In this document: positions 857-53,506 of the stretch, piece after piece | How positions within the stretch are numbered: the stretch's first letter is position 1 | Layout: each line of letters starts with the position of its first letter | Source: Arcobacteraceae bacterium | Lineage (GTDB): Bacteria > Campylobacterota > Campylobacteria > Campylobacterales > Arcobacteraceae | Assembly (NCBI GenBank): GCA_963662945.1 | Contig: OY759974.1 | Span: forward strand, 1,984,001-2,048,000 | Reading direction: 5' to 3' | DNA length: 64,000 nt | The notes under the pieces: model-generated | The model's database searches: none | What the model saw: the letters and a program-made list of their open reading frames with translations, nothing else | What the model was told of the DNA's origin: nothing | Position numbers and translations under genes: made by a program

Positions 857-910
857 ATTATAAAAGAAGTTGATTGCAATTTGATTACTAGAAGGTTACT
901 GTTTGATTAC
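857..910 (-). promoter_or_regulatory. Pho-box-like promoter with four 11-bp-phased repeats
   Basis: Minus strand: GTAATC-aaaca-GTAACC-ttcta-GTAATC-aaatt-GCAATC-N9-TATAAT. Confidence 0.8.
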
Positions 911-932
911 ATTTAAGTAAGTGAGATTGTAT

Positions 933-2747
933 CTATATTGGAATAATAATTTTAAAATTTGCACCTTTGAAATTTTGATTTTCATAGCTATATGCTTCAT
1001 TTGTAGCTATTATTTTTCCATTGAATCTATTTGTAATAATTTGGTAACTCATATAAAGTCCAAGACCTGTTCCTTGAGAGTTGTGTTTTGTTGTAAAATA
1101 GGGATCAAATATTTTATCTATTATTTTTTCAGAAATACCACCTGCATTGTCTTTGATAGAGATAACTGCATTATTATCTTCTTTGTATGTTGATACAAAA
1201 ATGAGTCTATTTGTTTCTCGATGTTCTTTGAGTGCATCTTTTGCATTATTTAATACGTTGATAACTACTTGTAAAAGTTCATTTTCATTATTATTAATCA
1301 AGATATCTTCAAAATTTGAAATGATTTCAATATCATTATTTGAAAATGCTTTTCCAAACATATCAAAGTTTTTTGTGATAATATCTTTGATATTAAATTC
1401 TTGATTATTTTGTTGTGGTTTAAGATAATTCTGAAAATCATCTATAGTTTTTGAGAGAAATTGCACTGTATCATTTACTTTAGTTAAATTTTCTGATAAT
1501 TCATTTTTTTCTACATCCAGTCCATATTCTAGTTTAAAGTTAAGTCCAGTTACAGATGCACTAATAACACTTAAAGGCTGTCTCCATTGGTGGGCAATAT
1601 TTCCTATCATCTCTCCCATACTTGCCATTTTTGCTTGTTGGTATAAGAGTATATCTTTTTGTCTTAGTTGTTCTTCTGCTATTTTTCGTTCACTTATATC
1701 TCTTGATGCTGCATATAAATACATCGTATCATTAAGCATAACTCCTGCCGTTCTAATCTCTACTGGGAATGTTGAACCATCTTTTCGAGTATGGCGTGCT
1801 TCAAAAGTTGTGGGATGTTTGATTAATTTAGAGATTTCATTAAGTTTAAAATTATGATCCCAATCTAAAACATTTAAAGTCTGAATTTCTTCATCTGTAT
1901 ATCCTAATGAAGTTGTAAATGAATCACTATACATAATGAGTTTTCCATCAGCATCTAAAATATGAATAGCATCACCAGCATTTTCTAAAATTGTTTTTAC
2001 TCGACTGTTTTCATCGTGTAGTGAATGTATTAAATCTTGTTGAATTTTGTTTTGTTTTTGTATAGTTGAAAGTTGGTTTGTAATTTGAATAATCATTTTA
2101 TTAAAAGTTTTAGCCAATAATCCTATTTCATCATTTGTATTTATATTTAACTTTACATCATAATTATTATTGGCAATGTTTTCAGCAGCATTTGTTAAAA
2201 GCAAGAGATGTTTTGTAAGGAGATAACCTATCGAAAAAAGTAAAACAATACTCAATATAATTTCAAATAAGGCGATAATAAAACTTTGTGTAATAAGTTC
2301 ATCTTTCGCATTTTGAAGAAAAGTTGTATCGATACCAAAATATACTTCTCCAAAGTTTTGTTCTTGAAAACTAACAGTGGTTTTTGTATTGTAAACTAAT
2401 GAATCTGCATTAAATTCGGTATCTATTTTGGGAATGGCGTTCTTTGAATTCCAGTTTGATGAAGCAATAATATGTTGATCTTTTTCAATAAAGATATATA
2501 CTATTTTTTTTGAGTTTGTATATTCTTTTAAAATAGAATCCAAACTGGCATAATCTCTTTCAGCAAGTAAGGGTAATAATGAAGCTTGAAAGTTCGCTTT
2601 TATCTCTTGAAGTTGTATTTTTGCTTGAGAGGTAAGATGGTTTTCTATAAGTCTTAAACTATTCATAATAAGTAGACTTAATATAGTTACTTCTATAATG
2701 ATAGAGAATATTATAAGTTTAAATCGTATACTTTTAAAAAAATTCAT
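933..2747 (-). CDS. membrane sensor histidine kinase (HAMP-PAS-HisKA-HATPase)
   Basis: Two TM segments, DEIGLLA HAMP, PAS (RKDGSTFPVE), H-box IAHQWRQP, NAKDA, DNAGG, GTGLGL. Confidence 0.93.
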   Translation of the reverse strand: MNFFKSIRFKLIIFSIIIEVTILSLLIMNSLRLIENHLTSQAKIQLQEIKANFQASLLPLLAERDYASLDSILKEYTNSKKIVYIFIEKDQHIIASSNWNSKNAIPKIDTEFNADSLVYNTKTTVSFQEQNFGEVYFGIDTTFLQNAKDELITQSFIIALFEIILSIVLLFSIGYLLTKHLLLLTNAAENIANNNYDVKLNINTNDEIGLLAKTFNKMIIQITNQLSTIQKQNKIQQDLIHSLHDENSRVKTILENAGDAIHILDADGKLIMYSDSFTTSLGYTDEEIQTLNVLDWDHNFKLNEISKLIKHPTTFEARHTRKDGSTFPVEIRTAGVMLNDTMYLYAASRDISERKIAEEQLRQKDILLYQQAKMASMGEMIGNIAHQWRQPLSVISASVTGLNFKLEYGLDVEKNELSENLTKVNDTVQFLSKTIDDFQNYLKPQQNNQEFNIKDIITKNFDMFGKAFSNNDIEIISNFEDILINNNENELLQVVINVLNNAKDALKEHRETNRLIFVSTYKEDNNAVISIKDNAGGISEKIIDKIFDPYFTTKHNSQGTGLGLYMSYQIITNRFNGKIIATNEAYSYENQNFKGANFKIIIPI

Positions 2748-3571
2748 TTGATGTTTAAAAACCCTTTAGTCTCTTCTAAAACGGGAGACATTGCTTCTAG
2801 ATCCTGTTTTGAAATTTCAATGTAGCCTTTATATCCTGTTTTTGTAAAAAAAACTTGTCCCGTGTTAGATTGTTCAAATGCTAATAAAGCATTTTTTAAC
2901 AGTTCGATTTTTTCTTTTGATAACTGTGGATTAGCTATAGTAAAAAGATGTGGCATTGAAAAACCAGATGGAAAAATTTTGATTTCACTTTGAATATCTT
3001 TGTTTGTTAGTTGTTTAATCGGTGTATATGTTGTAATTGCAGCATCTGAATCACCTAATATCACACTTTTTATAGCACTAGTATGTGAGTTTGAGTTAAT
3101 CAGTTTAAAATCAACATTATTTTTAAATCCTTCATCTAGAAGTGCTTTAATTCCTCCAATTGAAGATACAGAAAGATAATTTGACATTGAGATTTTTGTA
3201 TTTTTTAAATCTTTTACTTTGAAGTATGGACTATTTTTTAATACTACAAAAAGAGGTTCTAATTGTGTATTGTATCTAAATAGGGGAATAAACCCATCTT
3301 GTATATGTATAAGACCAAAATGTGGCCCTGTTATGATAATATCGAATTGACCTTTTTTTGTATCTTCAAAAAAATGTTCATAACTATTCGCTGTATATAT
3401 TTCAACTTTCTGTTGTAGTTTATTTTCTAAGAACTGTTTATATGGTTGATAAACTTTAAGTATTTTGAGAGTATCTGTGTAGGGTAAAATACCTATTTTA
3501 ATAGTATCTGCTGCAAAAGAAGAAGTTACAAATAAAAAAAATGAGAAGATGATATTTTTGAATAGTGACAT
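2744..3571 (-). CDS. PhnD/SsuA-like periplasmic phosphate/phosphonate-binding protein
   Basis: Signal peptide, GILPY...Y.P...LE..L pattern, S-S..G loop and SH..AI..V..G..DAA; 4-nt overlap with kinase. Confidence 0.8.
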   Translation of the reverse strand: MSLFKNIIFSFFLFVTSSFAADTIKIGILPYTDTLKILKVYQPYKQFLENKLQQKVEIYTANSYEHFFEDTKKGQFDIIITGPHFGLIHIQDGFIPLFRYNTQLEPLFVVLKNSPYFKVKDLKNTKISMSNYLSVSSIGGIKALLDEGFKNNVDFKLINSNSHTSAIKSVILGDSDAAITTYTPIKQLTNKDIQSEIKIFPSGFSMPHLFTIANPQLSKEKIELLKNALLAFEQSNTGQVFFTKTGYKGYIEISKQDLEAMSPVLEETKGFLNIK

Positions 3572-3663
3572 AAGATACCTTACATGAAAAAATATACTAA
3601 GATTATATGATAAAAATAATGTATTATTCTTTAAATATCTTAAAAAAGTAAAATGAGGTAATA

Positions 3664-5395: not shown

Positions 5396-5427
5396 ATTAT
5401 AAAACAGACAAATTACTTTTTGATTAC
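5396..5427 (-). promoter_or_regulatory. Pho-box-like promoter of olsF-like gene
   Basis: GTAATC-aaaaa-GTAATT-N9-TATAAT. Confidence 0.75.
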
Positions 5428-7176
5428 AGAAGAATCTTCATTTATAGATATACCCAGTGGTGTGAGATATTTTTTAGATTCTTTTTTTATTATCCCTAAA
5501 ACTTTATCTAAATCTGTATGTGTCTTAGGATTTTGAATCTCTATTATAGCACTACAAACACCTAGAAGTTTGAATTTTCTTAGTACTCCAAATCTATCTT
5601 TTGTTTGGATAAATTCATTTTCTTTATCAACAGCATTATATAATTCTTTTACTTGATTACGAAATTTGATTTGTATATTATTAATAGTATTATACACATC
5701 TTCATAGGCTTGATTAACAAAACCTACAAAAAAATCATCACCACCAATATGTGCTATAAAAGTATCTTTAGTTAACTCTTTTTTTAAAATATCAGTAAAC
5801 AAAATTATAGCTCTATCCCCTTGCCTGAAACCATAAATATCATTAAAAGGTTTAAAATCATTAAAGTCAAAATATACAATATGGTATGTTTTATTCTCTT
5901 CACAATGTAAAGCATTGGTAATGTAAAGTTCAATTTGTCTATTTCCAGGTAATTTACTCAATGGATTTTGATCTTTTGCTATTTCAATATTTCTATTATA
6001 AGAGATTGCTAAAAGATTATTTACATCAATAAAACCATAATATTGACTATTTTTAGTAATAAAAATACCATAAGAACTACTAGTATCCATATTATAAATT
6101 TCTAATATTTTATCAACTCCCCATGTTATTTCTGAAGAGATTGTATCTTTAATGAATTTTTTTAATTTTTCATTTGTTTTATCATTTTTTGCCAAAGAAA
6201 CACCAAATTGTGAGTAAGATAATTCTTTAATATCTTTTTCATAGATAACACCATAAAGTTGACCTATTTTATCAATTATTGGTACAAAAGTATTTGTAGG
6301 ATGATTTTTAAAATATTCAAAAAGGTCATTTAATGTAGCATCTAATTTTAATGGTTCTATAATCTCAATTTTTGATTTATCTACTATATTTGTAGTATAG
6401 CTTCTTTGATCATTTTTATATAAATCACTGATATAATGATATTTCATTCTTATTTTTGAAATATCAGTTTTAGGTTTTTGGATAAGATATCCTTGTACCA
6501 AATCTACACCAATATCTTTACAAGTGAGATATTCTTCTTTAGTTTCTACACCTTCTGCTATAACTTTCATACTCATAATATGTGCCATATTTATAATAGA
6601 GGAACAAAACAACCTTTTTTTTGCATCTTTTTGAATATTTTGGATGAAAAATCTATCGAGTTTTATAAATTTTGCTTGTGCATAATAAAGAAGTTGTAAA
6701 CCAGCAATACCTGTTCCAAAATCATCTATTGCTATATCATATCCCTCTTGTTGGTATCTTGTAACCATATTAGTTATAGAACTTGGGTCTTGAAGAGTTC
6801 CTCTTTCACTCAGTTCAAAACAGATTGATTTTTTATCAAAATTAAGTTCTTCTAAAATATTTGAAGTATTTCCAGTCGTAAAATCTGGCATATACATTAT
6901 TCTGTTGTCAAGATTATAGAACATTTGTAAGTTTTCTATCTCTATTTTAGAAAATTTTTTTAAAGCCATTGCTCGTAATTCTAAATCTAGTTGATAAAGC
7001 ATTGCATCGTGAAATGCTTCATCAAAAAGATTAAAAATAGAATAGAAACCTCCAGCTTCATGATAATTTCGTAAAAGTGCTTCTACAGCATAGATCTTTC
7101 CACTTTTTACATTTACTATTGGTTGAAAAGCATAATCTAGTTTTGAAATGATAGTTGTCCATTTTTTATCTAACAT
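5413..7176 (-). CDS. EAL-(CBS-like)-GGDEF c-di-GMP enzyme
   Basis: VEALLR, IDDFGTG, IKLD, AEGVE, QGY; C-terminal DFNDFKPFNDIYG and HIGGDDF. Confidence 0.9.
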   Translation of the reverse strand: MLDKKWTTIISKLDYAFQPIVNVKSGKIYAVEALLRNYHEAGGFYSIFNLFDEAFHDAMLYQLDLELRAMALKKFSKIEIENLQMFYNLDNRIMYMPDFTTGNTSNILEELNFDKKSICFELSERGTLQDPSSITNMVTRYQQEGYDIAIDDFGTGIAGLQLLYYAQAKFIKLDRFFIQNIQKDAKKRLFCSSIINMAHIMSMKVIAEGVETKEEYLTCKDIGVDLVQGYLIQKPKTDISKIRMKYHYISDLYKNDQRSYTTNIVDKSKIEIIEPLKLDATLNDLFEYFKNHPTNTFVPIIDKIGQLYGVIYEKDIKELSYSQFGVSLAKNDKTNEKLKKFIKDTISSEITWGVDKILEIYNMDTSSSYGIFITKNSQYYGFIDVNNLLAISYNRNIEIAKDQNPLSKLPGNRQIELYITNALHCEENKTYHIVYFDFNDFKPFNDIYGFRQGDRAIILFTDILKKELTKDTFIAHIGGDDFFVGFVNQAYEDVYNTINNIQIKFRNQVKELYNAVDKENEFIQTKDRFGVLRKFKLLGVCSAIIEIQNPKTHTDLDKVLGIIKKESKKYLTPLGISINEDSSVIKK

Positions 7177-7205: not shown

Positions 7206-7237
7206 ATTTTAGTAAAGAATAGTAACAGAATGATTAC
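7206..7237 (-). promoter_or_regulatory. Pho-box-like promoter of EAL-GGDEF gene
   Basis: GTAATC-attct-GTTACT-N9-TAAAAT. Confidence 0.68.
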
Positions 7238-8436
7238 ACTTTAGAGGTGAGTTTATTGTATCCTTTTTTTATATATTGAAGAAGAGGAAATTTGTAACGG
7301 ATAAAGACATATTGTTTGATACAATGACCAATAAAACCTTTTACTTGTACAAGACCATAAAGATCACATACAGCATATCTTCCACCTAAAGCTATCAATG
7401 TACCTTCGAGTTTTGGATTACAGGCATGGAGTTTTTTATTAGCAATTTGATTTAAAATATTTTGTGCAGAACAAATTCCACTTGCACGTGCAATTGTTAC
7501 ATTTGCAGGCATAATTTTCCCAGATTTATCTTTAACTTGAGCGATATCTCCTGCTGCAAAAATATCTTCATACCCTTCTACTTTAAGATATTCATCAACA
7601 ATTATTTGCCCTTTTTTATTTTTTGGTAAATTTGATTTTAAGATGAGGTTTGCCGCTTCAATACCACCTGCAAAAATTATAAATGAGTATTGAATTTTTG
7701 TGCCATTAGTAAGATAAAGATATTCTTTATCACAACTTTGCATTTTTGTATCAGTGATAATATTGATATCTAACTCTTTTAATCTTTCACTTGACATCCG
7801 AATCATTTTTGCATCAAATTCAGGTAATATGGTACTTCTTGAACTAATAAGAGAAATTTTAAAATTATCACAATGAAAACTTCCTCTTTTGAAAAACTGT
7901 TTTGCATAGTATGCCATTTCTGCTGCTATCTCAACTCCCGAAAGTCCAGCACCTACAACAGCAATGTGTGTTTTGTCACATTTTTTTGCTTCATCTTCTA
8001 TTTTGTTGAAAAGTTGTTTTTCAAAATTTTGTTTAAAATATAATGCTCTATGAAGTTTTTTTAAGTCATTTGTATTGTTCAATCCCTCAATATTTTGTGG
8101 GAAAAAAGTTCGTGTTCCAACACAAAGTAAAAGATAATCAAACTTAATAGTTTCTAATTCAGCGGTTGAAATTTGTTTATTAGTATAATCTATATCTGTA
8201 ACTCTTAGATTTTTATATTCTAAAAAAGGATGTTCAAATCCACTACAAAGAGAAGATAAATCAATAGTTACATCAGCTATTGTTCCCTTGTTTGCGATAA
8301 GATCATAAACTTCAGGTTGGAGATTATGATATGTATGTTTATCGATAAGTGTTATTTTGACATTTTTATTTTTTACGAGTTCTTTTAAGGCATAGATACC
8401 AGCGTATCCTCCACCAATTATTACAATATGTTTCAA
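7234..8436 (-). CDS. NAD(P)/FAD-dependent oxidoreductase, type II NADH dehydrogenase family
   Basis: IIGGGYAG, VVGAGLSGVEIAAE, IFAAGD; start moved to TTG 8436 (AGGT RBS) from track start 8481. Confidence 0.82.
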   Translation of the reverse strand: MKHIVIIGGGYAGIYALKELVKNKNVKITLIDKHTYHNLQPEVYDLIANKGTIADVTIDLSSLCSGFEHPFLEYKNLRVTDIDYTNKQISTAELETIKFDYLLLCVGTRTFFPQNIEGLNNTNDLKKLHRALYFKQNFEKQLFNKIEDEAKKCDKTHIAVVGAGLSGVEIAAEMAYYAKQFFKRGSFHCDNFKISLISSRSTILPEFDAKMIRMSSERLKELDINIITDTKMQSCDKEYLYLTNGTKIQYSFIIFAGGIEAANLILKSNLPKNKKGQIIVDEYLKVEGYEDIFAAGDIAQVKDKSGKIMPANVTIARASGICSAQNILNQIANKKLHACNPKLEGTLIALGGRYAVCDLYGLVQVKGFIGHCIKQYVFIRYKFPLLQYIKKGYNKLTSKV

Positions 8437-8466
8437 TTTTTTGTACCTATTTTTTAAAGTTTTGTT

Positions 8467-8498
8467 ATTATAACATAACAAGATTGCTAATTAGTTAC
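8467..8498 (-). promoter_or_regulatory. Pho-box-like promoter of NDH-2-like gene
   Basis: GTAACT-aatta-GCAATC-N9-TATAAT. Confidence 0.72.
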
Positions 8499-9179: not shown

Positions 9180-9211
9180 GTAACTTAAGTGTTATTTTCT
9201 TCAGATAATAT
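9180..9211 (+). promoter_or_regulatory. Pho-box-like promoter of DASS transporter
   Basis: GTAACT-taagt-GTTATT-N9-TAATAT. Confidence 0.55.
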
Positions 9212-9306: not shown

Positions 9307-10761
9307 ATGCTTGATACTAGACGACATTTAAAACAATTTTTTGATAAAGCATATACTATGTCTTTACAAGTTGTTTTTGCAAGTTTTTCAATCTCATTTT
9401 TCATTGCTTTTGTAGTTGCTTTTATTCCAGATTATGGGATAGATGCAAATATGACCTATACACTTTTTATTTTACTTTTTGCTGCTGGACTTTGGATAAC
9501 TGAAGCGATACCTGCTTTTGCAGTTTCTTTGTTAGTAATAGCCTTAGAAATGGTTTTGTTAGGTTTTAATAATTTTGATTTTTCTAGTGGAAGTAAAGAG
9601 TGGCAAGTATATTTACAGCCTTGGTCATCGCCACTGATCTTTTTATTTTTAGCTGGTTTTATTATGGCAGCAGCTGCATCAAAAACAAAACTGGATGTTT
9701 GGTTAGCTAAAAAAGTTTTATTTTTTGTTGGTGGACGACCACATAATATTGTCACAGGATTGATTGGTATTACCTATGTGTTGTCGATGTTTGTATCCAA
9801 TACAGCAACAGCTGCTATGATGATGACAATACTTTTACCACTTTTGGGACATATAAAAGAATCAAACCCATTTCAAAAAGCTGTTTTACTCTCAGTGGTA
9901 ATTGGAGCAAATTTAGGAGGAATGGCTACAATCATTGGAACACCACCAAATGCCATTGCAGTGGGAATTTTGGGAGAAAATGCTCCTTCATTTATAGGAT
10001 GGATTGCTTTATCATTACCGCCATCTTTATTGGTAGTTTTTATTTTACGGCTTGTTATTTTAAAAGTATATCCTTCTAGTGAACCTTTTATTGATTTAAA
10101 ATCTATAAAAGAAGTAGAGCATTTTGATGATTCTACTAAACAGTTTTCAAAAATTCCAACAATTCCAAGTTGGAAAAAAAATGTAACAGTAGCTATTTTT
10201 ACTATGACGATTTTATTATGGCTTACGGGACCTTTACATCATATACCTACAACAGTTGTATCTCTTTTACCAATTATTGGTTTTACACTTTTTGGGATTC
10301 TTGATGCAGACGATATGTGTAAAATAAGATGGGATGTGATTATCTTAATTATAGGTGGATTAAGTTTAGGTTTAGCAGTTTCTAAAACAGGACTAGATAT
10401 CTGGCTAGCTACACTTATATCGACAGATGGTATGTCAATACTATGGATTATGTTTATATTTTCCTATTTAGTTGTAGTAATTTCAAATTTTATGAGTAAT
10501 ACTGCTGCTACTAATATTATGCTTCCTATAGTGATTGCAATTGCAACAACAATATCTCAAGAAGCTAGTTATTTGGCAGTTGTAGCTGTTGCACTTAGTG
10601 CTTCTTTTGCTATGAGTTTAGCAGTATCAACACCACCAAATGCTATAATTTTTTCAAGTAAAAAAGTTCAGTCAAAAGACTTTTTAATTTTAGGTATAAT
10701 TACAGCTATTATTGGACCAGTTATAGTAATAGGATGGCTTTATCTTATTCAACTATTTTAA
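9307..10761 (+). CDS. SLC13/DASS family anion:sodium symporter
   Basis: LWITEAIP, SMFVSNTAT, IGTPPNA, FMSNTA, STPPNAI; many TM helices. Confidence 0.92.
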   Translation: MLDTRRHLKQFFDKAYTMSLQVVFASFSISFFIAFVVAFIPDYGIDANMTYTLFILLFAAGLWITEAIPAFAVSLLVIALEMVLLGFNNFDFSSGSKEWQVYLQPWSSPLIFLFLAGFIMAAAASKTKLDVWLAKKVLFFVGGRPHNIVTGLIGITYVLSMFVSNTATAAMMMTILLPLLGHIKESNPFQKAVLLSVVIGANLGGMATIIGTPPNAIAVGILGENAPSFIGWIALSLPPSLLVVFILRLVILKVYPSSEPFIDLKSIKEVEHFDDSTKQFSKIPTIPSWKKNVTVAIFTMTILLWLTGPLHHIPTTVVSLLPIIGFTLFGILDADDMCKIRWDVIILIIGGLSLGLAVSKTGLDIWLATLISTDGMSILWIMFIFSYLVVVISNFMSNTAATNIMLPIVIAIATTISQEASYLAVVAVALSASFAMSLAVSTPPNAIIFSSKKVQSKDFLILGIITAIIGPVIVIGWLYLIQLF

Positions 10762-10771: not shown

Positions 10772-10803
10772 GTAATCATTATGTTATTATAAAAGATTAT
10801 AAT
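10772..10803 (+). promoter_or_regulatory. Pho-box-like promoter of glgP-pgk-mgtE
   Basis: GTAATC-attat-GTTATT-N9-TATAAT. Confidence 0.72.
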
Positions 10804-10832: not shown

Positions 10833-12473
10833 ATGCAGATTGAACAGTATGAGTTTAGTAAAGATTATGACAAGCCAGTAGCTTATTTTTCAATGGAATT
10901 TGCGATCCATCAAGCATTGAAAATATATTCAGGAGGACTCGGATTTTTAGCAGGTTCTCATATGCGAAGCGTATATGATTTAAGACAGAATGTTGTAGGT
11001 ATTGGAATTTTATGGAGTTATGGATATTACGATCAAGCTAGAGATGAAGATAGAAATCTAAAAGTTGAATTTAGAAGAAAGTATTATCATTTTTTAGAAG
11101 AGTTAAATATTAGTGTTACAGTAGATATCAATGGAAAACCTGTTGTTGTAAAAGCATTTATGGTTCCAGCAGAACTTTTTGGTAGTGCACCTTTAATTTT
11201 ACTGACTACTGATGTTCCTGAAAATGATTATCTTTCAAGAACAATTACACATAAACTTTATGATATGCATGAAGAAACACGAATTGCACAAGAAATTGTA
11301 CTTGGTATTGGTGGGGTTAAAGTGCTTGAAGCTTTAAATCATAAAGTTGATATTTATCATATGAATGAAGGACATTCTTTACCTATGGTTTTTGAACTTT
11401 ATCATAAAATTAAAGATTTAGAGCAATTAAAAGAGATGGTAAGATTTACTACTCATACACCAGAAGCTGCTGGAAATGAAGTTCATGATATTCATCTTTT
11501 AAATAAAATGGGTTTTTTTAACTCTACACCATTAGAAGAGGTGCGAGAATTAACGCAAATACAAGATGATAGTTTTAGCTTGACAGTTGCTGCATTAAGA
11601 ATTGCAAAACTTGCAAATGGTGTATCAAAAATGCATGCAAAAGTTGCTACTGATATGTGGAAAGGATATGGCAATATTTGTCCAATTATTCCTATTACAA
11701 ATGCACAAAATAAAAGATTTTGGGCAGATAAACCGATGCTAAGAGCGTTAGATGAACATGAGGGATATGAACTTATAGCTAGAAAAAAACATTTGAAAAG
11801 AGTTTTATTTGGAGAAGTAGCAGACCAAACAGGAAAAATGTTTGATCCAGATATTTTAACAATTGTTTGGGCAAGAAGATTTGCAGAATATAAAAGACCA
11901 GGATTATTAAAATATGATTTTGAAAGATTTGAAAAACTTATCACTCGATCAAAAGAACCTATTCAAATCATTTGGGCAGGAAAGCCATATCCTCATGATA
12001 CAAATGCAATTAATATATTTAATGAATTAACATATATTTCAAGAAACTATAAAAGAGTTGCAGTATTGATTGGATATGAGTTAGAACTGTCAAGACTTCT
12101 TAAAAAAGGTGCTGATATTTGGTTAAATACTCCAAGAATCACAAGAGAAGCCAGTGGTACAAGTGGTATGAGTGCCGCTATGAATGGTGCAATTAATTTT
12201 TCTATTGCAGATGGTTGGCATCCTGAATTTTGTAAAGAAGAGGTAAATAGTTTTACAATCACAGGTGCAGATGCAAGTTTAAGTATCGAGGAACAAGACA
12301 AAAATGATAATAAAAATATGATGGATATATTAGAAAACACAATTATTCCAACATATTATGAAGACCAAACAAAATGGGTTGAGTTGATGAAAAACTCAAT
12401 GAGTGATGTTTTGTTTGAGTTTGATTCAGGTTCTATGGCTCATAAGTATTATGAAAAAATGTATAAATTCTAG
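10833..12473 (+). CDS. glgP: alpha-glucan phosphorylase family (GT35), short form, PLP-Lys replaced
   Basis: AYFSMEF, YSGGLGFLAG, HMNEGH, FTTHTP, ARRFAEYKR, EASGTSGM-S. Confidence 0.88.
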   Translation: MQIEQYEFSKDYDKPVAYFSMEFAIHQALKIYSGGLGFLAGSHMRSVYDLRQNVVGIGILWSYGYYDQARDEDRNLKVEFRRKYYHFLEELNISVTVDINGKPVVVKAFMVPAELFGSAPLILLTTDVPENDYLSRTITHKLYDMHEETRIAQEIVLGIGGVKVLEALNHKVDIYHMNEGHSLPMVFELYHKIKDLEQLKEMVRFTTHTPEAAGNEVHDIHLLNKMGFFNSTPLEEVRELTQIQDDSFSLTVAALRIAKLANGVSKMHAKVATDMWKGYGNICPIIPITNAQNKRFWADKPMLRALDEHEGYELIARKKHLKRVLFGEVADQTGKMFDPDILTIVWARRFAEYKRPGLLKYDFERFEKLITRSKEPIQIIWAGKPYPHDTNAINIFNELTYISRNYKRVAVLIGYELELSRLLKKGADIWLNTPRITREASGTSGMSAAMNGAINFSIADGWHPEFCKEEVNSFTITGADASLSIEEQDKNDNKNMMDILENTIIPTYYEDQTKWVELMKNSMSDVLFEFDSGSMAHKYYEKMYKF

Positions 12474-12479
12474 GAGAAT

Positions 12480-42069: not shown

Positions 42070-42097
42070 TGTTTGTCCTTATAAAATTTATTTGAAG

Positions 42098-42129
42098 ATT
42101 GTAGAACAGTTTTATTTCTATTTGATTAC
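42098..42129 (-). promoter_or_regulatory. Pho-box-like promoter of gap-pfkA-pyk
   Basis: GTAATC-aaata-GAAATA-N9-TACAAT. Confidence 0.62.
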
Positions 42130-42152
42130 ATATTCTACACATTACTTATCAT

Positions 42153-42184
42153 GTAATCAAATTGTATCTTGAAATACCTATACT
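42153..42184 (+). promoter_or_regulatory. Pho-box-like promoter of fbaA-eno-pyk
   Basis: GTAATC-aaatt-GTATCT-N9-TATACT. Confidence 0.68.
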
Positions 42185-42214
42185 TTTGTATAAACATTAT
42201 AAAGGTGAGATTGT

Positions 42215-43279: not shown

Positions 43280-43289
43280 GGAGTTTACA

Positions 43290-44567
43290 ATGAGTGGAAT
43301 AATTACAGATATAAATGCATTAGAGATATTAGATAGTAGAGGCAATCCAACAGTAAGAGTTTATGTAGAGTTAGAATGTGGTATTGTAGCATCTGCTTCA
43401 GTTCCAAGTGGTGCAAGTACAGGTGCCAACGAAGCTTTGGAATTAAGAGATGGTGATATGAAAAGATATGGTGGAAAAGGTGTGTTAAAAGCTGTTTCAA
43501 ATGTACAATCTATTATAGCACCAGAACTTATAGGTATGAATGTATTGGAACAAAGTGAGATAGATTTTGCAATGATTGCACTTGATGGTACACCGAATAA
43601 ATCAAAACTTGGAGCAAATGCTATCTTAGGTGTTTCTATGGCTGTTGCAAAAGCTGGTGCTATGTATAGTGATATGCCTTTATACAGATATCTAGGTGGA
43701 AGTAATGTAAGACGAATACCAGTACCATGTATGAATATTTTAAATGGTGGAAGTCATGCAGATAATAGTGTTGATATTCAAGAATTTATGGTTGTCCCAC
43801 ATGGAGCTCCTTCTTTTAGTGAAGGGTTACGATATGCTACTGAAACATTTCATGAGTTAAAAAAACTTTTAAGTGCTAAAGGAAAAGCTACAAGTGTTGG
43901 AGATGAGGGTGGCTTTGCACCAAATCTTGATAGCAATGAAGAAGCTATGGAACTTATAGTAGAAGCTATAAAAAATGCTGGATATAAACCTGGAAGTGAT
44001 ATAAGTTTAGCACTTGATAGTGCAGCTAGTGAATTTTTAGCTGCAAATAGTTCAAATATCTATGATTTAAAATGGTCACATGGCGGGATAAAAACAAGTG
44101 ATGAGATGATTGAAATGGCAAAAAACTGGTGTGAAAAATATCCTATTATTTCTTGGGAAGATCCACTCGCAGAAAATGATTGGGAAGGATTTTCAAAGTT
44201 CACAAAAGAGTTTGGAGATAAAATAGAAGTTGTTGGAGATGATTTATTTGTTACAAATACAAAATATGTAGAAAGAGGTATTAGACAAAAAAGTGCAAAC
44301 TCTGTTTTGATTAAATTAAATCAAATAGGAACAGTAACAGAAACTATAGATACTATTAGAATGTGTAAAGATGTAGGTTGGAGAACATTTATCTCACATC
44401 GTTCTGGAGAAACAGGAGATACTTTTATAGCAGACTTTGCTGTAGCTTTTGATGCTGGACATATAAAAACAGGTTCTGCAAGCAGAAGTGAAAGGATAGA
44501 AAAGTATAATAGACTTTTAGAAATAGAAGCACAACTTGGAGCATCAGCTCAATACTTTTGGAAATAG
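43290..44567 (+). CDS. eno: enolase
   Basis: [47 protein letters not shown]. Confidence 0.97.
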
Positions 44568-44579
44568 GATATATAAAGA

Positions 44580-46001
44580 ATGAGAAAAACAAAGATTGTA
44601 GTAACACTAGGGCCAGCAACTGATAGTTTAAAAATGATAGAAAAACTTATTAAAAAAGGGGTAAATGTATTTAGATTAAACTTTTCACATGCTACTCATG
44701 AATACCATCAAGAGGTTGCAAAAAGGATACGAAAAGCATCGCAAAATGTAAATAAAGAAGTAGCAATCCTTCAAGATATTGCAGGTCCAAAGATACGAAT
44801 ATCTCATTTAAAAAAGCCAATAGAGTTAAAAATAGGGGATATACTTACTTTGACTAAAGATAAAATAGATGAAGATAAAAAAATAGTAAGTTTGAGTTAT
44901 CCAATTATTATAGATAGTCTTAAAGTTGGGGAGCCAGTTTATTTTTCAGATGGAACAATTCGAGCTAAAGTAGTAGAAAAAAATGCAGATGAGGTAAAGT
45001 GTGAAATAATAGTAGCCCAAACACTTCAATCAAAAAAAGGGATGAATCTTCCTAAGTCAAAACTGGCTATTAAGTCAATTACACAAAAAGATAAAGAGGA
45101 TTTAGCTTTTGGTGCAAAGATTGGGGTTGATATAGTTGCATTGTCTTTTGTAAGTAACAAAGAGGATATACAAGATGCAAAAGATATTTTAGAACAACAC
45201 AATTCAAATCCACTTATTTTTGCAAAAATAGAGAAAAAAGAGGCTATTGAAAATATCAAATCTATTTTAAAAGCAGCAGATGGAATTATGGTGGCACGAG
45301 GTGATTTAGGGGTAGAGTTAGGACTAAAAAAAGTTCCACTAATCCAAAAGAAAATTATAGCCCAAGCTTTAAAAATGGGAAAACCAACTATAACAGCAAC
45401 ACAAATGTTAACTTCAATGATAAATTCACACTATCCTACACGTGCAGAGATATCTGATGTGGCAAATGCAGTTTTAGATGGAAGTGATGCTGTTATGTTA
45501 AGTGATGAAACAACTATAGGAAAGTATCCTTTAAGTGCCGTAGAAGTTTTAAATGAAACTATAATTGAAACAGAAAAAGCATATCCATATTATCAAGATA
45601 CAGACCATGTTTCATCAGATGATTCAATTGCAGCAGCAGTTACAACACTAGCAAAAAATATCAAACCTGATGCACTTATAGCTTTTACGCGAGCTGGAAG
45701 AAGTGCTATGTCTATGGCAAAATTTAGACCAAGAGCAAAAATTCTTGTAAGTAGTTATGACTTAAGAACTTTACGAAAATTGCAACTTGTATGGGGAATA
45801 GAGGGTATTTATCTTTCTCATAAATTAAATGATGCTGATGAATTAATCAAAAGCTTTTTAACTTGGGCATTAAAGAAAAAACATATTAGTAAAAATAAAA
45901 AATATGTATTAACGATTGGTTCACCAATAAATGTGAAACACTCTACAAATGATATACGAATATTGGAAAACGAGAGTATGGAGTATATTTTAGGGAAATA
46001 A
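44580..46001 (+). CDS. pyk: pyruvate kinase
   Basis: RKTKIV.TLGP, RLNFSH, AKIE, MVARGDLG, ATQML.SM, PTRAE..DVANA. Confidence 0.96.
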   Translation: MRKTKIVVTLGPATDSLKMIEKLIKKGVNVFRLNFSHATHEYHQEVAKRIRKASQNVNKEVAILQDIAGPKIRISHLKKPIELKIGDILTLTKDKIDEDKKIVSLSYPIIIDSLKVGEPVYFSDGTIRAKVVEKNADEVKCEIIVAQTLQSKKGMNLPKSKLAIKSITQKDKEDLAFGAKIGVDIVALSFVSNKEDIQDAKDILEQHNSNPLIFAKIEKKEAIENIKSILKAADGIMVARGDLGVELGLKKVPLIQKKIIAQALKMGKPTITATQMLTSMINSHYPTRAEISDVANAVLDGSDAVMLSDETTIGKYPLSAVEVLNETIIETEKAYPYYQDTDHVSSDDSIAAAVTTLAKNIKPDALIAFTRAGRSAMSMAKFRPRAKILVSSYDLRTLRKLQLVWGIEGIYLSHKLNDADELIKSFLTWALKKKHISKNKKYVLTIGSPINVKHSTNDIRILENESMEYILGK

Positions 46002-46064
46002 TTACTTGATAAGTTTTATTGCTGTATTATTGAAATTGTAATTTTGATGATAAAGGAGTAATTG

Positions 46065-46619
46065 ATGAAAAAAGTTATTTTAGGATTGTCTGTTTTAAGT
46101 GTTTTAGCATTTGCTAATCAAGATGTAAAAGAAACAGCAAAGAAAAGTATGATGATGTTAGGTTCAACTTTAAAAGGTGAGTTGCAAACAAAATTTAAGG
46201 AAGATCCATCTGGAATGGCTGCGATTGATTATTGTTCAAATCAAGCACAAACTATCACTGATGAGGTAAATGCAAAGTTAGGTGAGGGTGTAAGGGTGAG
46301 AAGAACAGCTTTAAAATATAGAAATGATGCAAATGAACCATCAATACAAGATATTGAAGTGATGCAAAAATTTCAAAAAGATATTGAAGTTGGGAAAAAG
46401 AGTCCTAAAACTATGATGAAAATAGTTGAAACAGATAAAAAAACTTATGTATATAAAGCACTTGCAGTTGAAAAACCATGTTTAAAATGTCACGGAGATG
46501 TAGCTAAAATGGATAAAAATATCTTAGGTAAGATTGATGAAAGATTTCCTTATGATAGAGCAAGAAATTTTGCTTTAGGTGATTTTAGAGGGGCAATAGT
46601 TGTTGAGATAAACAAATAA
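46065..46619 (+). CDS. periplasmic monoheme c-type protein (DUF3365/Tll0287-like)
   Basis: Signal peptide, AI..C, RRTALKYRN..N.P, CLKCH, YP.D.A-like motif, G..RGA. Confidence 0.8.
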   Translation: MKKVILGLSVLSVLAFANQDVKETAKKSMMMLGSTLKGELQTKFKEDPSGMAAIDYCSNQAQTITDEVNAKLGEGVRVRRTALKYRNDANEPSIQDIEVMQKFQKDIEVGKKSPKTMMKIVETDKKTYVYKALAVEKPCLKCHGDVAKMDKNILGKIDERFPYDRARNFALGDFRGAIVVEINK

Positions 46620-46643
46620 ATCTACTTTTTAAAAAGTAGATTT
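46618..46643. terminator. bidirectional palindrome at convergent stops
   Basis: AAATCTACTTTTT-AAAAAGTAGATTT perfect 26-bp palindrome. Confidence 0.65.
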
Positions 46644-47465
46644 AACTCTTGCTATCTCTTCTTTTGAACCAAAGTAGATTGGTGTTTTTTGATGTAATGA
46701 TGGAGATTTTATATCTAAGATTCTCTTTTTCCCATCTATAGCTTCACCGTTTGCAAGTTCAATGATAAATGAGATAGGAAATGCTTCAAAGATAACTTCT
46801 AAAGTTCCATCTATATTTGATGTAGTTGCGGGACTTGAATAAATTCCACCTTTTTTAAATAAAATCTGATGAGTATCAAGACATAGTGAGTTACTTACTC
46901 GAAGACGATAACCTTCGTTGAAAAAACTGTCTAAGAGTGCTTTATGTTCTACACTAAATTCATTTGCTTTTCCAGCTGTTGAGTTGATTTTTCCTTTTGA
47001 TTGTAATTCCAATGGATCTTGTTGGATAAATTCTCCATGTTCATTTGAGAAGTATTTTACCCCTTCATTTTTTGAAGCAAATACAAGTTGGAAAGTTGGA
47101 CCATAAGTGATATAAATAGCAGCTTTTAGTTTATCTGCTTCAAATTCATTTTCATAGATACCAAAAATACTTCCAAGAGAAAAGTTTAAATCAAGAAGTT
47201 CAATATTATCAATAGCTACACAACTTACAAGGTATTTTCCATTTTCATTGATACTACAAAATTGTTTTTTATTTTTTCCAATGATACCTTTGACACTTTT
47301 GAGGTATTCAAATTCTTTTTCTATAACTTGTAAACAATATTCTTGTATATCTTCGTGTATCTCTTTTTCTGTTTTTGTTTCGTCAGTAAAGTTACTGTAA
47401 TTTATAAAAACATTTTTCTCAATTTGATTTGCAATATTGGTTATTGCATTATAAACTTCTATCAT
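46629..47465 (-). CDS. class I fructose-1,6-bisphosphatase homolog with degenerate active site
   Basis: GSIFGIY, KGKIN, EGYRLR, DTHQIL..GGI, FEAFP, HQKTPIYFGS match FBPase I; SEE, DPLDGS and KLR motifs replaced. Confidence 0.8.
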   Translation of the reverse strand: MIEVYNAITNIANQIEKNVFINYSNFTDETKTEKEIHEDIQEYCLQVIEKEFEYLKSVKGIIGKNKKQFCSINENGKYLVSCVAIDNIELLDLNFSLGSIFGIYENEFEADKLKAAIYITYGPTFQLVFASKNEGVKYFSNEHGEFIQQDPLELQSKGKINSTAGKANEFSVEHKALLDSFFNEGYRLRVSNSLCLDTHQILFKKGGIYSSPATTSNIDGTLEVIFEAFPISFIIELANGEAIDGKKRILDIKSPSLHQKTPIYFGSKEEIARVKSTF

Positions 47466-47484
47466 CTATATTTGCCTTTTTTTA

Positions 47485-47654
47485 AGCACTATACTGTGTT
47501 AAGTTTTACTTAAGATTAAAGAAAATAGCTTTAGTAGTTAAGTTCCATATCTTCATCTTTGAAGATACTTATCCTTCAAATACTGGATTTTTATCTTCAA
47601 ATCACGCGTAATTTTTTTGTTAATCTTAAGTAAAAATTAACACAGAATAGTGCT
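47485..47654. repeat. 170-bp element with 34-bp terminal inverted repeats (MITE-like)
   Basis: 47485-47518 AGCACTATACTGTGTTAAGTTTTACTTAAGATTA vs reverse complement of 47621-47654: 32/34 identical. Confidence 0.75.
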
Positions 47655-47679
47655 ACTTTTTTATATGCCGCAATTATAA

Positions 47680-49284
47680 CTAAAAGAGGCTTGTAACAAT
47701 TTTTTGTGCATCACTTTGGATAGTTTTTAAGTGTTCCTCATTTATAAAACTCTCCGCATATATTTTATAAACATCTTCAGTCCCAGAAGGTCTTAATGCA
47801 CACCAGCCATTTTGAGTATTGATTTTAAGTCCTCCAATTTTTGCACCATTTGAAGCAGTTGTTAAAATAGAAGTTATCTTTTCTCCTGCAAGTGTATCTG
47901 CTTTTATATCTTCACTTACAAGATTTTTAAGTCTATTTTTTTGCTCACTATTTGCAGGTGCATCAATTCTAGCATAGATAGGTTTTCCATGTTTTTTTAT
48001 AAGATTTTCGTAGTAAATCCCTGGGTCACTTTTTGTTTTTGCTAGTATCTCAGCAGAGAGTAGATTTAAGATAATTCCATCTTTATCTGTAGTCCAAGGT
48101 TTTTTATCAAATCGTAAAAAACTAGCCCCAGCACTCTCTTCACCACCAAAGAAAACCTGACCATCAATAAGAGGTTTAACAAACCATTTAAACCCAACTG
48201 GCGTTTCAAAAAGTTCTTTGTTATTATCAAGGGCAACTCTATCTATCATAGAACTACTTACAAGAGTTTTTCCAATCCCCAAACCGTCAAAGTCTCTGTT
48301 TCTTGAAAGATAATCTATAGCAACACTTAAGTAGTGGTTTGGATTTAATAAACCTACACTTTTTGTCACTATACCATGTCTATCAAAATCTGTATCATTT
48401 CCAAAAGCTATATCAAACTTATCTTTATATTCTATAAGTCCTGCCATAGCATAAGGGCTTGAACAATCCATACGGATTTTCCCATCTTTATCACAGTGCA
48501 TAAATGAAAATGTAAAATCAACAGAGTCATTAAATGTAGTAATATTTAAATTATATGCTTTGGCAATTGCTTCATAATATTTTAAACCACTTCCACCCAT
48601 ACAATCAGCACCAATCTTGATATTTGATTGAGCAATAAGTTCCATATTTATAACATTTTTCAAATCTTTTACATAAGGTGTCATAAAATCATACTCTTGG
48701 ATACATTTCTGTTTAATAGCTTCATCAAAATCAAGATACACTACACCTTGTAAATCATTTAAGAGATATTCATTTGCTTTGTTTTCTATCCAAGTTGTGA
48801 TATCTACATCTGCTGGACCTCCGTCAAGTCCATTGTATTTAAAACCACCATCACAAGGTGGATTATGTGATGGAGTGATAACAATTCCATCACTACCTTT
48901 TTTATTTAAAATAGCATGAGAAATAACAGGAGTAGGGGTATACTCGAAATTTGCAGCATAACATACCTCTACATCATTTGCAGCTAATACTTGAAGTGCT
49001 GTTTTGTGTGCTGGAGTTGATAGTGCATGAGTATCCATCCCTATAAATAAAGTCCCTGTAATATTGTGTGCTTTTCTATAATCAACAACTGCTTGTGTTA
49101 CAGCTAAGATATGTGCTTCATTAAAACTATTTTTTAAGCTACTTCCTCTATGCCCTGAAGTTCCAAATGCTATTTTTTGTGTTTCATCTTCACAATTTGG
49201 AAAGTTTGTATAGTAACAACTTATCAATTCTGCAATATTTTCTAAAATCTCTTTTGGCGCAATTTTCCCAGCATTACTATTCAT
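47680..49284 (-). CDS. pgm: phosphoglucomutase (alpha-D-glucose-phosphate specific)
   Basis: FGTSGHRG, ITPSHNPP, NDTDFDRHG, PVGFKWF, GEESAG, RPSGTE. Confidence 0.95.
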   Translation of the reverse strand: MNSNAGKIAPKEILENIAELISCYYTNFPNCEDETQKIAFGTSGHRGSSLKNSFNEAHILAVTQAVVDYRKAHNITGTLFIGMDTHALSTPAHKTALQVLAANDVEVCYAANFEYTPTPVISHAILNKKGSDGIVITPSHNPPCDGGFKYNGLDGGPADVDITTWIENKANEYLLNDLQGVVYLDFDEAIKQKCIQEYDFMTPYVKDLKNVINMELIAQSNIKIGADCMGGSGLKYYEAIAKAYNLNITTFNDSVDFTFSFMHCDKDGKIRMDCSSPYAMAGLIEYKDKFDIAFGNDTDFDRHGIVTKSVGLLNPNHYLSVAIDYLSRNRDFDGLGIGKTLVSSSMIDRVALDNNKELFETPVGFKWFVKPLIDGQVFFGGEESAGASFLRFDKKPWTTDKDGIILNLLSAEILAKTKSDPGIYYENLIKKHGKPIYARIDAPANSEQKNRLKNLVSEDIKADTLAGEKITSILTTASNGAKIGGLKINTQNGWCALRPSGTEDVYKIYAESFINEEHLKTIQSDAQKIVTSLF

Positions 49285-52322: not shown

Positions 52323-52352
52323 AAAGGTAACTTGAGTTTTCAAGTTACCTTT
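52323..52352 (-). terminator. rho-independent terminator of pstS
   Basis: AAAGGTAACTTGA-gttt-TCAAGTTACCTTT with T-run downstream on the minus strand. Confidence 0.85.
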
Positions 52353-52381
52353 AAAAGAAATTAGGAGTTAAATTTTATAGT

Positions 52382-53443
52382 TTAGTGTTTTTTAGATAAA
52401 TCTTCTAAAGTCAATTTTGTTCTTTTTGCAACAGAGTTTCTGATTGCTTCTCTTGTAGCATCTGGAAGTGGAATTAAACCAATTTCACCTAAAATACCAT
52501 TGTTACCAATCATATCTTCAGACATAAACATATCTACATATTTACTCATTGCAGGTACATCTTTAGAGTGAGAGTTTTTGATGTAGAAAAATAAACTTCT
52601 TGCAATTGGATATTTATGAGATGCAATAGTTTCAGGAGTTGGTAAGAAACCATCTATTGTAGCACCTTGTACTTTATCTTGATTTTCCATTAAGAATGAG
52701 TAACCAAAAATACCGATTGCATCTCTATTTTTATCTAGTTTTGCAACAATTAAGTTATCATTTTCACCACTTGGAACATACGCACCATCTGTTCTAATTT
52801 CAGAATATTTTTTGTATTTTTTATTTGCTTTGTTATCTGCTTTGTAAAGATCTGTATAAACATTCATTTTTTTGAATGTATGTTGTAATACCATCTCTTC
52901 AAAAGCATCTCTTGTTCCAGAAGATTTTGGAGGACCATATACGATAATATCTCTATTTGGTAAAGATGCATCTATATCAGACCATTTTTTGTAAGGGTTT
53001 GCTATAAGTTTTTTACCATCTTTACTTGGTACTTCAGCAGCAGTAGCAAGAGCTAATTGAGTTTTTGTTAAAGATAATGGTTTGTCTGCTTTAGATTGTG
53101 CAATAGCAATACCGTCAAAACCAATTACTGCTTCAGTAATGTCATGAACACCATTTTTTTCACACATCTCAAATTCTTTAGTTTTCATTCTTCTTGATGC
53201 ATTTGTAATATCTGGCGTATTTAAATCATTTCCAGCACAAAATAATTTCATACCACCACCTGAACCAGTTGATTCAACTACTGGAGTTGGAAATTTTGTT
53301 GTTGCACCTAATTCTTCAGCTACAGATGAAGAAAATGGATAAACAGTTGAAGAACCAACTATTTTAATTTGGTCTCTAGCACTAAGAGATACAGTTAACG
53401 CAGATGCAGTTAATAAAGCAATTGCAGTTTTTTTCATTGTCAT
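52382..53443 (-). CDS. pstS: phosphate ABC transporter substrate-binding protein PstS
   Basis: IVGSSTVYP, ESTGSGGG.KLFC.G, NASR, SSGTRDAF, FGYSF, YPIARSLFFY. Confidence 0.92.
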   Translation of the reverse strand: MTMKKTAIALLTASALTVSLSARDQIKIVGSSTVYPFSSSVAEELGATTKFPTPVVESTGSGGGMKLFCAGNDLNTPDITNASRRMKTKEFEMCEKNGVHDITEAVIGFDGIAIAQSKADKPLSLTKTQLALATAAEVPSKDGKKLIANPYKKWSDIDASLPNRDIIVYGPPKSSGTRDAFEEMVLQHTFKKMNVYTDLYKADNKANKKYKKYSEIRTDGAYVPSGENDNLIVAKLDKNRDAIGIFGYSFLMENQDKVQGATIDGFLPTPETIASHKYPIARSLFFYIKNSHSKDVPAMSKYVDMFMSEDMIGNNGILGEIGLIPLPDATREAIRNSVAKRTKLTLEDLSKKH

Positions 53444-53474
53444 TTTGAAAGTCCTTTTGTTTTTTTTCGTAGGA

Positions 53475-53506
53475 ATTATAAATTAGAAAGATTACTGTTT
53501 GGTTAC
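53475..53506 (-). promoter_or_regulatory. Pho box promoter of pstS
   Basis: GTAACC-aaaca-GTAATC-N9-TATAAT. Confidence 0.85.

Follow-up and report, generated by a model that had tools for sequence, protein, structure and literature searches.

The window analyzed here, a stretch of 64,000 nucleotides, comprises positions 1984001-2048000 of the single-contig, 2,497,315-bp genome of an Arcobacteraceae bacterium whose closest named relatives are uncultured Arcobacteraceae genomes; the G+C content is 27-32% across the window. Thirteen intergenic promoters in it share one layout of direct repeats at a fixed distance from a -10 box and, judged by the genes and genomes in which it recurs, this layout is the Pho box of the family Arcobacteraceae. 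The explanation that we favor, and consider probable as a whole, is that this Pho box and a PhoB-type regulator couple phosphate scavenging to gene units that would lead from glycogen to acetate.

The promoter motif

The layout is captured by the strict pattern GTAAYY-N5-GTWAYH-N9-TANNNT, read on the coding strand of the downstream gene. An earlier note on this DNA had claimed 13 intergenic sites sharing it, with a few single-base deviations and a constant 9 nt to the -10 box, and the claim holds up: all 13 are found at their coordinates, 8 of them exact (5396-5427, 7206-7237, 9180-9211, 10772-10803, 19373-19404, 19428-19459, 30165-30196, and 53475-53506) and 5 with one mismatch, and the 9 nt are kept before TANNNT in 13 of 13. 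The mismatches lie in box 2 at 857-888 and 8467-8498 (GCAATC in both), in box 1 at 15066-15097 on the plus strand (ATAACT), and in box 2 at 42098-42129 on the minus strand (GAAATA) and at 42153-42184 on the plus strand (GTATCT). The four boxes that had been described at 857-910 are likewise present, as three overlapping registers. With up to one mismatch allowed, and the four-box locus contributing its three registers, the window has 15 matches, against a mean of 0.83 and a largest value of 4 in 100 dinucleotide shuffles. Exact matches number 14 in the whole 2.50-Mb genome, compared with 2, 1, and 0 in three dinucleotide-shuffled versions of it, and 11 of the 14 fall within one 66-kb stretch (genome 1971045-2037506), 8 in the window and three just upstream of it.

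The geometry is strict. When the spacer between the proximal box and the -10 box is varied, N9 gives the 14 matches and any length of 5-8 or 10-14 nt gives 1-3; when the gap between the boxes is varied, N5 gives 14 and 2-4 or 6-9 nt give 0-2. Without a -10 box, a pair of boxes shows only weak enrichment genome-wide (41 against 17-30 in shuffles), so the recurrent unit is the whole promoter layout and not a word. A matrix trained on the window sites, with a reporting floor of 12 bits and 16 bits used for the gene-wise count, finds a site within 150 nt upstream of 24 genes out of 2408, where the genes were called by a crude longest-open-reading-frame heuristic; hence the motif is not the generic promoter of the organism. 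At most sites, the start codon follows 24-32 nt after the end of the -10 box. These are the properties of a Pho box: at least two direct repeats with an 11-nt period (6 + 5), a fixed position about 10 nt from the -10 box in place of a -35 element, with only N9 enriched, and occurrence both at pst genes and at the operon of the regulator itself.

An independent matrix was built from 13 distinct pstB promoters, all from other species, with the spacer columns zeroed, replacing a version that kept these columns and overfitted the orthologous spacer. It has 20 matches of at least 18 bits in the source genome, against 0 in three Markov-2 simulated genomes, and recovers 9 of the 13 window promoters at that threshold: those of pstS (28.5), an open reading frame (ORF) of 82 aa (19.3, and up to 21.4 in the other two registers), the EAL-GGDEF gene (21.2), fba (20.7), a receiver-histidine kinase hybrid, REC-HK (18.9), a flavoprotein oxidoreductase (18.9), olsF (18.6), DUF4912/branching enzyme (18.3), and PFOR (18.0). 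The pstS promoter is also the best site in the genome by the window-trained matrix, at 32.3 bits.

Core Pho genes and the candidate regulator

As the earlier note had predicted for the pst and pho promoters, two exact copies of the motif lie 9-13 kb upstream of the window, one before pstC of pstC-pstA (genome 1975093) and one before pstB-phoU-phoB-phoR (1971045), at a distance of 29-31 nt. The third exact match just upstream of the window precedes a gene for a methyl-accepting chemotaxis protein (MCP). PstC, PstA, and PstB score 283, 213, and 404 bits, all over their cut-offs. PPK2, which lies outside the 66-kb stretch, is preceded by a 21-bit site.

The same note had placed the regulator outside the window, and a PhoB-like response regulator is indeed encoded at genome 1968834-1969505, about 14.5 kb upstream. 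PhoB is its best-scoring model, and its context is that of a PhoB, with a receiver and a winged-helix domain and a place in an operon of pstB, a phoU-like gene, the response regulator, and a histidine kinase. This arrangement recurs in genus genomes G008, G054, and others, and a PhoB ortholog (65-71% identity) is found in 7 of 7 motif-bearing genomes examined. The closest solved structure to the regulator is a generic member of the OmpR family, 1kgs, and OmpR-family members other than the E. coli PhoB ranked first. A paralogous regulator for the carbon sites was considered, but no close paralog was found: the adjacent response regulator is 28% identical, and the next-best ones in G015, G011, and G038 are 38-40% identical.

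The PstS of the window falls below the TIGR02136 cut-off (146.2 against 206.6 bits). Since its orthologs in other genera (69-79% identity) lie directly upstream of pstCAB, the window gene is, by this positional orthology, the pstS of the family. In the source genome, a Pit/sulfate-permease-like transporter gene on the opposite strand (L001:7233-8870, +) splits pstA from pstB, which are contiguous as pstCAB elsewhere, and the pstB behind it has its own Pho box.

Distribution across the family and order

Pattern counts in other genomes were judged against a reversed-pattern control. The strict pattern is present in 18 of 18 other genus genomes sampled, with 1-20 matches per genome (control 0-3 per strand, at most 4 per genome), and in 55 of 60 other family genomes, most of them far above the control (0-3 per strand, at most 5 per genome). 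There is no enrichment in 12 genomes from other families of the order, which have 0-3 matches, as in the control. In the more distant Campylobacterota, 74 loci with GH57 genes, several of them at 25-30% G+C, include 68 without a match and 6 with a single match.

Among the five zero-match family genomes, four gave no PhoB ortholog with the query used (best matches at most 35% identical), and in three of the five no pstS was found either. A small-genome relative of genus g21 (G047, L205) holds a pstS ortholog (71% identity) that lacks GTAAY boxes, and a search for a PhoB ortholog in it found none. Upstream of this pstS there is a different direct repeat, TTAGATTTAA, present twice, and the regulator may have been replaced there.

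In seven genomes from five other genera, a site stands before pstS at each of the 6 loci with this gene and before pstC at each of the 6 with that one; the seventh locus has sites before the EAL gene and before phoU-phoB-phoR. The order, with variants, is [site] pstS, EAL-GGDEF, [site] pstC-pstA-pstB-phoU. The EAL-GGDEF gene lies between pstS and pstC in 5 of these 7 loci and behind its own site in a sixth, so by gene order the EAL-GGDEF gene of the window is an old member of the pst locus. Its standing as an ancestral resident suggests a conserved link from Pho to cyclic di-GMP (c-di-GMP) in Arcobacteraceae.

Conservation within the genus

The genus was represented by 28 genomes; the counts that follow include the source genome unless stated, and sites were counted from about 14-15 bits upward. 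The gene glgP is present in 16 of the 28 genomes and has a site in 13 of the 15 others; at one further locus, cut by a contig end, part of the motif is visible. The sequences that flank the glgP sites can no longer be aligned, yet both boxes and the -10 box keep their register. A gap gene of the cluster type (at least 74% identity) has a site in 12 of 14 loci, and the housekeeping gap (55-60% identity) has one in 0 of 13 loci examined, with a maximum of 0.3 bits. For PFOR, a site of at least 14 bits is found in 11 of 15 loci, and a further two keep the layout at 10.8-12.3 bits, with GAAACC as box 1. The olsF gene has a site in 11 of 15 loci; in G015, the site precedes a 63-aa ORF upstream of olsF. 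At pstB, 15 of 24 genus loci have a site, and the other nine, where pstB seems to follow directly on another gene, have none within 150 nt.

The pta promoter has a site in 11 of 20 loci, namely in 11 of 14 glgP-positive genomes and in 0 of 6 glgP-negative ones. A Hox-like operon has a site in 9 of 12 loci. It stands at 29-40 nt in G013, G011, G038, G015, and G002; in the source genome and three close relatives, it is 201 nt upstream, inside a crudely called coding sequence, and we are less sure of this operon as a target in the source genome.

In G015, the cluster occupies three separate places and its proteins are 62-82% identical to those of the window, yet the sites persist at REC-HK, arsC, the oxidoreductase, the PFOR operon, glgP, pgk, DUF4912/branching enzyme, and the glucanotransferase. 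G008, which has no glgP, keeps sites at pstB-phoU-phoBR, at olsF/82-aa ORF/pstCA, at an MCP gene, and at pstS.

Promoters of the window and their genes

The site at 53475-53506 (minus strand) is the promoter of the pstS ortholog, followed by an MCP with dCache_3 and CZB domains, a PAS protein, and phosphoglucomutase (genes from 53443 down to 47680). This pgm, which sits in the pstS operon, belongs to a private glycolysis set; a fructose-bisphosphatase gene, fbp, at 46629-47465, 214 nt downstream of it, has no site of its own. The note had seen no motif before ispG, cvpA, pepD, cheY, or the MCP, and in agreement with this there is no site of at least 12 bits in 53507-64000. At 5396-5427 (minus strand) lies the promoter of an operon of olsF, a PhnD-like binding protein, and a HAMP-PAS histidine kinase (genes from 5370 down to 933). 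OlsF is a full-length match to the NF052615 equivalog over residues 1-567, with 830 bits against a cut-off of 620. The site at 7206-7237 (minus strand) precedes the EAL-GGDEF gene (5413-7176).

The gene labels of the note mostly stand, including OlsF, glucan phosphorylase, the GH57 enzymes, PFOR, GAPDH, and class II aldolase. Its NDH-2 is less certain: the gene at 7234-8481, behind the site at 8467-8498 (minus strand), encodes a Pyr_redox-type flavoprotein oxidoreductase that is below every curated cut-off, so that the NDH-2 identity is unconfirmed. The site is conserved before an 80%-identical ortholog in G015. The site at 15066-15097 (plus strand) does not directly precede the branching enzyme, as it stands before a DUF4912 gene that is followed by the GH57 branching enzyme (genes 15122-17324).

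The complete glycogen set of the window consists of the phosphorylase, three GH57 enzymes, a nucleotidyl-transferase/phosphoglucomutase (PGM) fusion, and glgA. The alpha-glucan phosphorylase, with pgk and mgtE, is read from 10772-10803 (plus strand; genes 10833-15037), and a GH57 amylase/4-alpha-glucanotransferase from 19373-19404 (minus strand; gene 17341-19395), with the divergent promoter of REC-HK at 19428-19459 (plus strand; gene 19487-20680). A DASS anion:sodium symporter is encoded at 9307-10761, 96 nt after the site at 9180-9211 (plus strand). The PFOR operon, beginning with a nifJ-type PFOR of 1189 aa, has its promoter at 30165-30196 (minus strand; genes from 30136 down to 20667) and continues with a DHO_dh-like gene, a PhnD-like binding protein, a PAS kinase, and a REC-GGDEF-EAL gene.

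Two divergent promoters serve glycolysis. That at 42153-42184 (plus strand) precedes fba, eno, pyk, and a Tll0287-like gene (42215-46619), and that at 42098-42129 (minus strand) precedes gap, pfk, and a 602-aa pyruvate kinase-like gene (from 42069 down). The gap promoter probably reads on into the NTP-transferase/PGM fusion, a GH57 gene, a GalT-like gene, glgA, and a ROK kinase, down to 30326: the 59-nt gap between the pyruvate kinase-like gene and the fusion (38144-38202) has no terminator-like site. A generic sigma-70 consensus scan of 30000-49000 gave 118 promoter-like sites against 108 in shuffled sequence and 6 terminator-like ones against 5.9, and was thus uninformative. The note had proposed a weaker 14th site before the fusion (38175-38207, minus strand), and it is weak as described, with one good half-site, GTTACG, a poor distal box, and the -10 box one base further; scoring below 12 bits, it was left out of the count. 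The 83 nt that separate gap from pfk hold a perfect hairpin with a 10-bp stem (41031-41058), perhaps an attenuator or a point of processing within the operon. The fusion itself (35651-38143) is an 830-aa protein that joins a GlgC-like nucleotidyl-transferase to a phosphoglucomutase, and in the 602-aa protein (38203-40011) the pyruvate kinase barrel begins only at residue 317.

For gap, pgk, fba, eno, and fbp, second, housekeeping copies exist elsewhere in the genome at 35-65% identity and without a site (maximum 8.0 bits); pfk, pyk, glgP, glgA, and the single-chain PFOR each occur once in the genome. The EAL gene lies about 46 kb from pstS and about 14 kb from pstC. Because of colinearity with the other genera, the carbon module is best described, from gene order, as private paralogs inserted into the old interval between pstS and pstC.

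The site at 857-910 (minus strand) consists of four tandem 11-nt boxes, GTAATCAAACA GTAACCTTCTA GTAATCAAATT GCAATC, and a TATAAT -10 box, and scores 31.0 bits with the window-trained matrix and 19.3-21.4 bits across registers with the pstB-trained one. It precedes the acidic 82-aa ORF (582-830, minus strand), whose ribosome-binding site lies 26 nt after the -10 box. This ORF has no known family, and an ESM Atlas search returned no usable match; an ortholog of 48% identity lies between olsF and pstC in G008. A second small and very acidic ORF without a family, of 103 aa, stands behind a strong Pho box at genome 1611975-1612286 (+).

A PhnD-like (Phosphonate-bd) binding protein with an adjacent PAS sensor kinase occurs in three pairs, at 2744-3571/933-2747, 24686-25567/22336-24675, and 56523-57362/57362-60694, and two of these are inside Pho-box operons.

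Candidate targets outside the window

The matrix detects further sites before PPK2, pta-ackA, arsC, a paralogous dCache_3/CZB MCP, a GT4 glycosyltransferase, and a NuoL/Mrp-like gene. The Hox-like operon (genome 2321055-2324389) encodes NuoE, NuoF, the N-terminal part of NuoG, and NiFe small-subunit domains. Taken with pta-ackA and this operon, the window genes would form a pathway, complete in itself, that leads from glycogen to acetate and perhaps to H2.

Divergent Pho-box-like sites stand before the GT4 glycosyltransferase (genome 1696783-1696821), which, by analogy with Agt of Desulfovibrio, could be a glycolipid synthase for phosphorus-free membranes. Weaker matrix matches in the 66-kb stretch precede a 132-aa ORF and a 558-aa ORF, neither with a known family. 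The latter (L001:14920-16596, -) has no Pfam or NCBIfam match and resembles HD-domain clusters in the ESM Atlas (0.98), a lead by which it may be a phosphohydrolase. A strong Pho-box promoter without an ORF (22.3 and 29.5 bits) is found at genome 2355422-2355545 (+) and is conserved in G009 and G013; a hairpin and a U-run, some 35-60 nt past the -10 box, suggest a small RNA under phosphate control. This candidate has no Rfam match, and its fold z-score is -1.4.

Proposed regulation and its alternatives

In the proposed mechanism, two direct repeats GTAAY(C/T)-N5-GTWAY, or once four, would take the place of the -35 element, with 10 nt between the end of the proximal GTAAY core and the -10 box. 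Once phosphorylated, the OmpR/PhoB-type regulator from the pstB-phoU-response regulator-histidine kinase operon would most likely bind them head-to-tail and bring in RNA polymerase in the manner of PhoB at class II promoters. An ancestral locus of pstS, EAL-GGDEF, pstCAB, phoU, and phoBR would have been pulled apart in this genus by inserted units, each with its own Pho box: olsF, the glycogen set, the private glycolysis set, PFOR, and several signaling genes. Phosphate limitation would then turn on scavenging, phosphorus-free lipid synthesis, changes in c-di-GMP and chemotaxis, and the glycogen-to-acetate route together. Activation, phosphate as the signal, the physiological purpose, and binding by this particular regulator are what we infer from sequence. 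Activation is assigned to both promoter groups because the layout is identical at the pst and carbon promoters, and phosphate is taken as the signal because the regulator lies behind pstB-phoU, as well as from the core targets. The earlier note's reading of a Pho regulon is supported by the sites at pst, pho, and PPK2 and by the family-wide anchor of the motif, but the purpose it had proposed, carbon storage, goes further than the sequence, and the genes fit breakdown and fermentation equally well.

Several observations weigh against this explanation. The response regulator misses the TIGR02154 cut-off (168.4 against 296.2 bits), the kinase, for which PhoR is the best model, is at 141 against 334 bits, and the PhoU-like protein is at 64 against 130. 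The source genome has 28 Trans_reg_C regulators over the cut-off. With such scores and so many regulators, what assigns the motif to this regulator is gene context and autoregulation. One family genome, G061, has a PhoB ortholog of 65% identity, yet no strict pattern match. By the pstB-trained matrix, four of the carbon-side promoters are modest, with gap at 14.7 bits, glgP at 13.3, DASS at 12.4, and the GH57 glucanotransferase below 12. In G036, both glgP and the cluster-type gap lack the site, and G003 lacks it at gap; moreover, the genus genomes are related, so the counts across genomes are not independent events. It is also not obviously adaptive to induce steps that consume phosphate, such as phosphorylase, GAPDH, and Pta, under phosphate shortage.

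The strongest of the alternatives, which we nevertheless regard as unlikely, is that the boxes answer to an OmpR-family regulator sensing energy, redox, or carbon, or that a second regulator shares the carbon boxes, so that the pst genes are passengers in a broader starvation regulon. The sub-cut-off scores of regulator, kinase, and PhoU would fit this, as would the abundance of Trans_reg_C proteins, a kinase with about 195 extra N-terminal residues beyond its match to the PhoR model, a second pair of a response regulator and a Cache kinase right beside phoR, and the many signaling genes in the regulon (the PhnD-like/kinase pairs, REC-HK, GGDEF/EAL genes, and MCPs). However, the regulator is in a box-preceded pstB-phoU operon both within this genus and outside it, pstS, pstCAB, phoU, olsF, and PPK2 are the conserved core targets, the adjacent and next-best response regulators are as distant as given above, and no sub-motif distinguishes the pst sites from the carbon sites.

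Less likely again is that the same regulator represses the carbon promoters by occluding RNA polymerase, so that glycogen use is shut off at low phosphate. The boxes do cover the would-be -35 region, phosphorolysis and substrate-level phosphorylation use up phosphate, and PhoP of Streptomyces coelicolor is described in a review as repressing glycogen catabolism and gluconeogenesis (PMC4415409). Against it, the carbon promoters have base for base the layout of pstS, pstC, and pstB, with N5, N9, and no TTGACA-like -35 element, and sites of repression usually vary in position, which the carbon-promoter sites do not. To our knowledge, the pst genes are induced in every known Pho system. Finally, that the motif is a generic AT-rich periodic promoter signal of Campylobacterota, which the note had named as its refuter, or consists of functionless copies from local duplication, is hardly credible: the low G+C and the weak enrichment of the boxes alone would agree with it, but the shuffles, the spacing-specific enrichment, the 24 of 2408 genes, the site-free housekeeping gap loci, the nearly match-free distant GH57 loci, and orthologous sites whose flanks diverged while the boxes stayed exclude the generic signal and speak against idle copies.

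To return to activation by the PhoB-type regulator, a wider proposal can be built on it, that in this uncultured genus the pst operon was the seed of a growing PhoB-dependent regulon island of about 60 kb, with phosphate, instead of carbon or oxygen, as the master switch between respiration and glycogen use. Joined by pta-ackA and the Hox-like hydrogenase, the island would encode an entire, privately duplicated pathway that runs from glycogen to acetate and H2. We hold this to be possible but doubtful; if true, the phosphate-switched island would be a storage economy reminiscent of polyphosphate- and glycogen-accumulating organisms. If the favored explanation is correct, bacteria that are frequent in sediments, wastewater, and algal habitats would have their carbon storage and fermentation controlled by phosphate supply, and the presence of two glycolytic enzyme sets in non-saccharolytic bacteria would be explained. 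It would also give an example of regulon growth by insertion into the regulator's own transporter locus, and a usable operator model for a family that includes the cultivable Arcobacter and Aliarcobacter.

Comparison with known systems

Pho regulons are textbook systems; what would be new here, judging from the sequence comparisons, is the Pho box of this family, the private carbon paralogs in the pst locus, and the reach to pta-ackA and a hydrogenase. The Pho box of Escherichia coli is built of CTGTCAT repeats that recur every 11 bp and lie 10 bp upstream of the -10 box. The sites of the window resemble those of PhoB class II promoters in that direct repeats with an 11-nt period stand in for the -35 element, their distance to the -10 box being fixed, with two or four repeats per promoter, and in their presence at pstS, at pstCAB, and at the autoregulated operon of the regulator. 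The half-site differs, (T)GTAAY here against TGTCAY in E. coli, which is one position apart; also unlike E. coli, the regulator fails the PhoB equivalog score and the regulon extends deep into central carbon metabolism. RapA of Pseudomonas fluorescens is a PhoB-controlled c-di-GMP phosphodiesterase, and the EAL-GGDEF gene is likewise an EAL-domain gene in a predicted Pho regulon; it differs from RapA in its EAL-GGDEF order and family.

Campylobacter jejuni, from the same phylum, has a PhosR box of GTTTC-type repeats, which would differ from the motif here. PhosR is also an OmpR-type regulator and is reported to induce phosphate-uptake genes on phosphate limitation; its regulon under PhosS/PhosR is described as mostly phosphate uptake (PMC9449129), whereas the sites here reach carbon metabolism. 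We did not find an Arcobacter Pho box or regulon, or a matching link from PhoB to glycogen, described in the literature, where supplementary target lists, which could hold carbon genes, lay outside the search. In the literature searched, we also found no case of about ten Pho-box promoters driving a whole pathway of glycogen, glycolysis, PFOR, and acetate.

Related findings are on record. In Desulfovibrio under phosphate limitation, Pst, PhoR, OlsF, and glycolipid synthase are reported to matter, and the same paper cites glycogen formation in phosphate-limited Corynebacterium (PMC5193443). In a proteome study of phosphate-limited Salmonella, glycolysis and glycogen metabolism are reported to go up, with a small subset of the changes dependent on PhoB (PMC6027262); unlike there, the link between phosphate and carbon appears here to be written into the promoters. 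In S. coelicolor, PhoP is described as acting through 11-nt direct repeats (PMC2275107) and as a repressor of gluconeogenesis as well as of glycogen catabolism (Thomas et al. 2012, as cited in PMC4415409). In both organisms a Pho response regulator would act on glycogen and carbon genes through 11-nt repeats, which is a prediction in our case; where S. coelicolor has a few enzymes repressed, the Arcobacteraceae genome has about ten promoters of predicted activator type, spread over a whole dedicated pathway of private paralogs.

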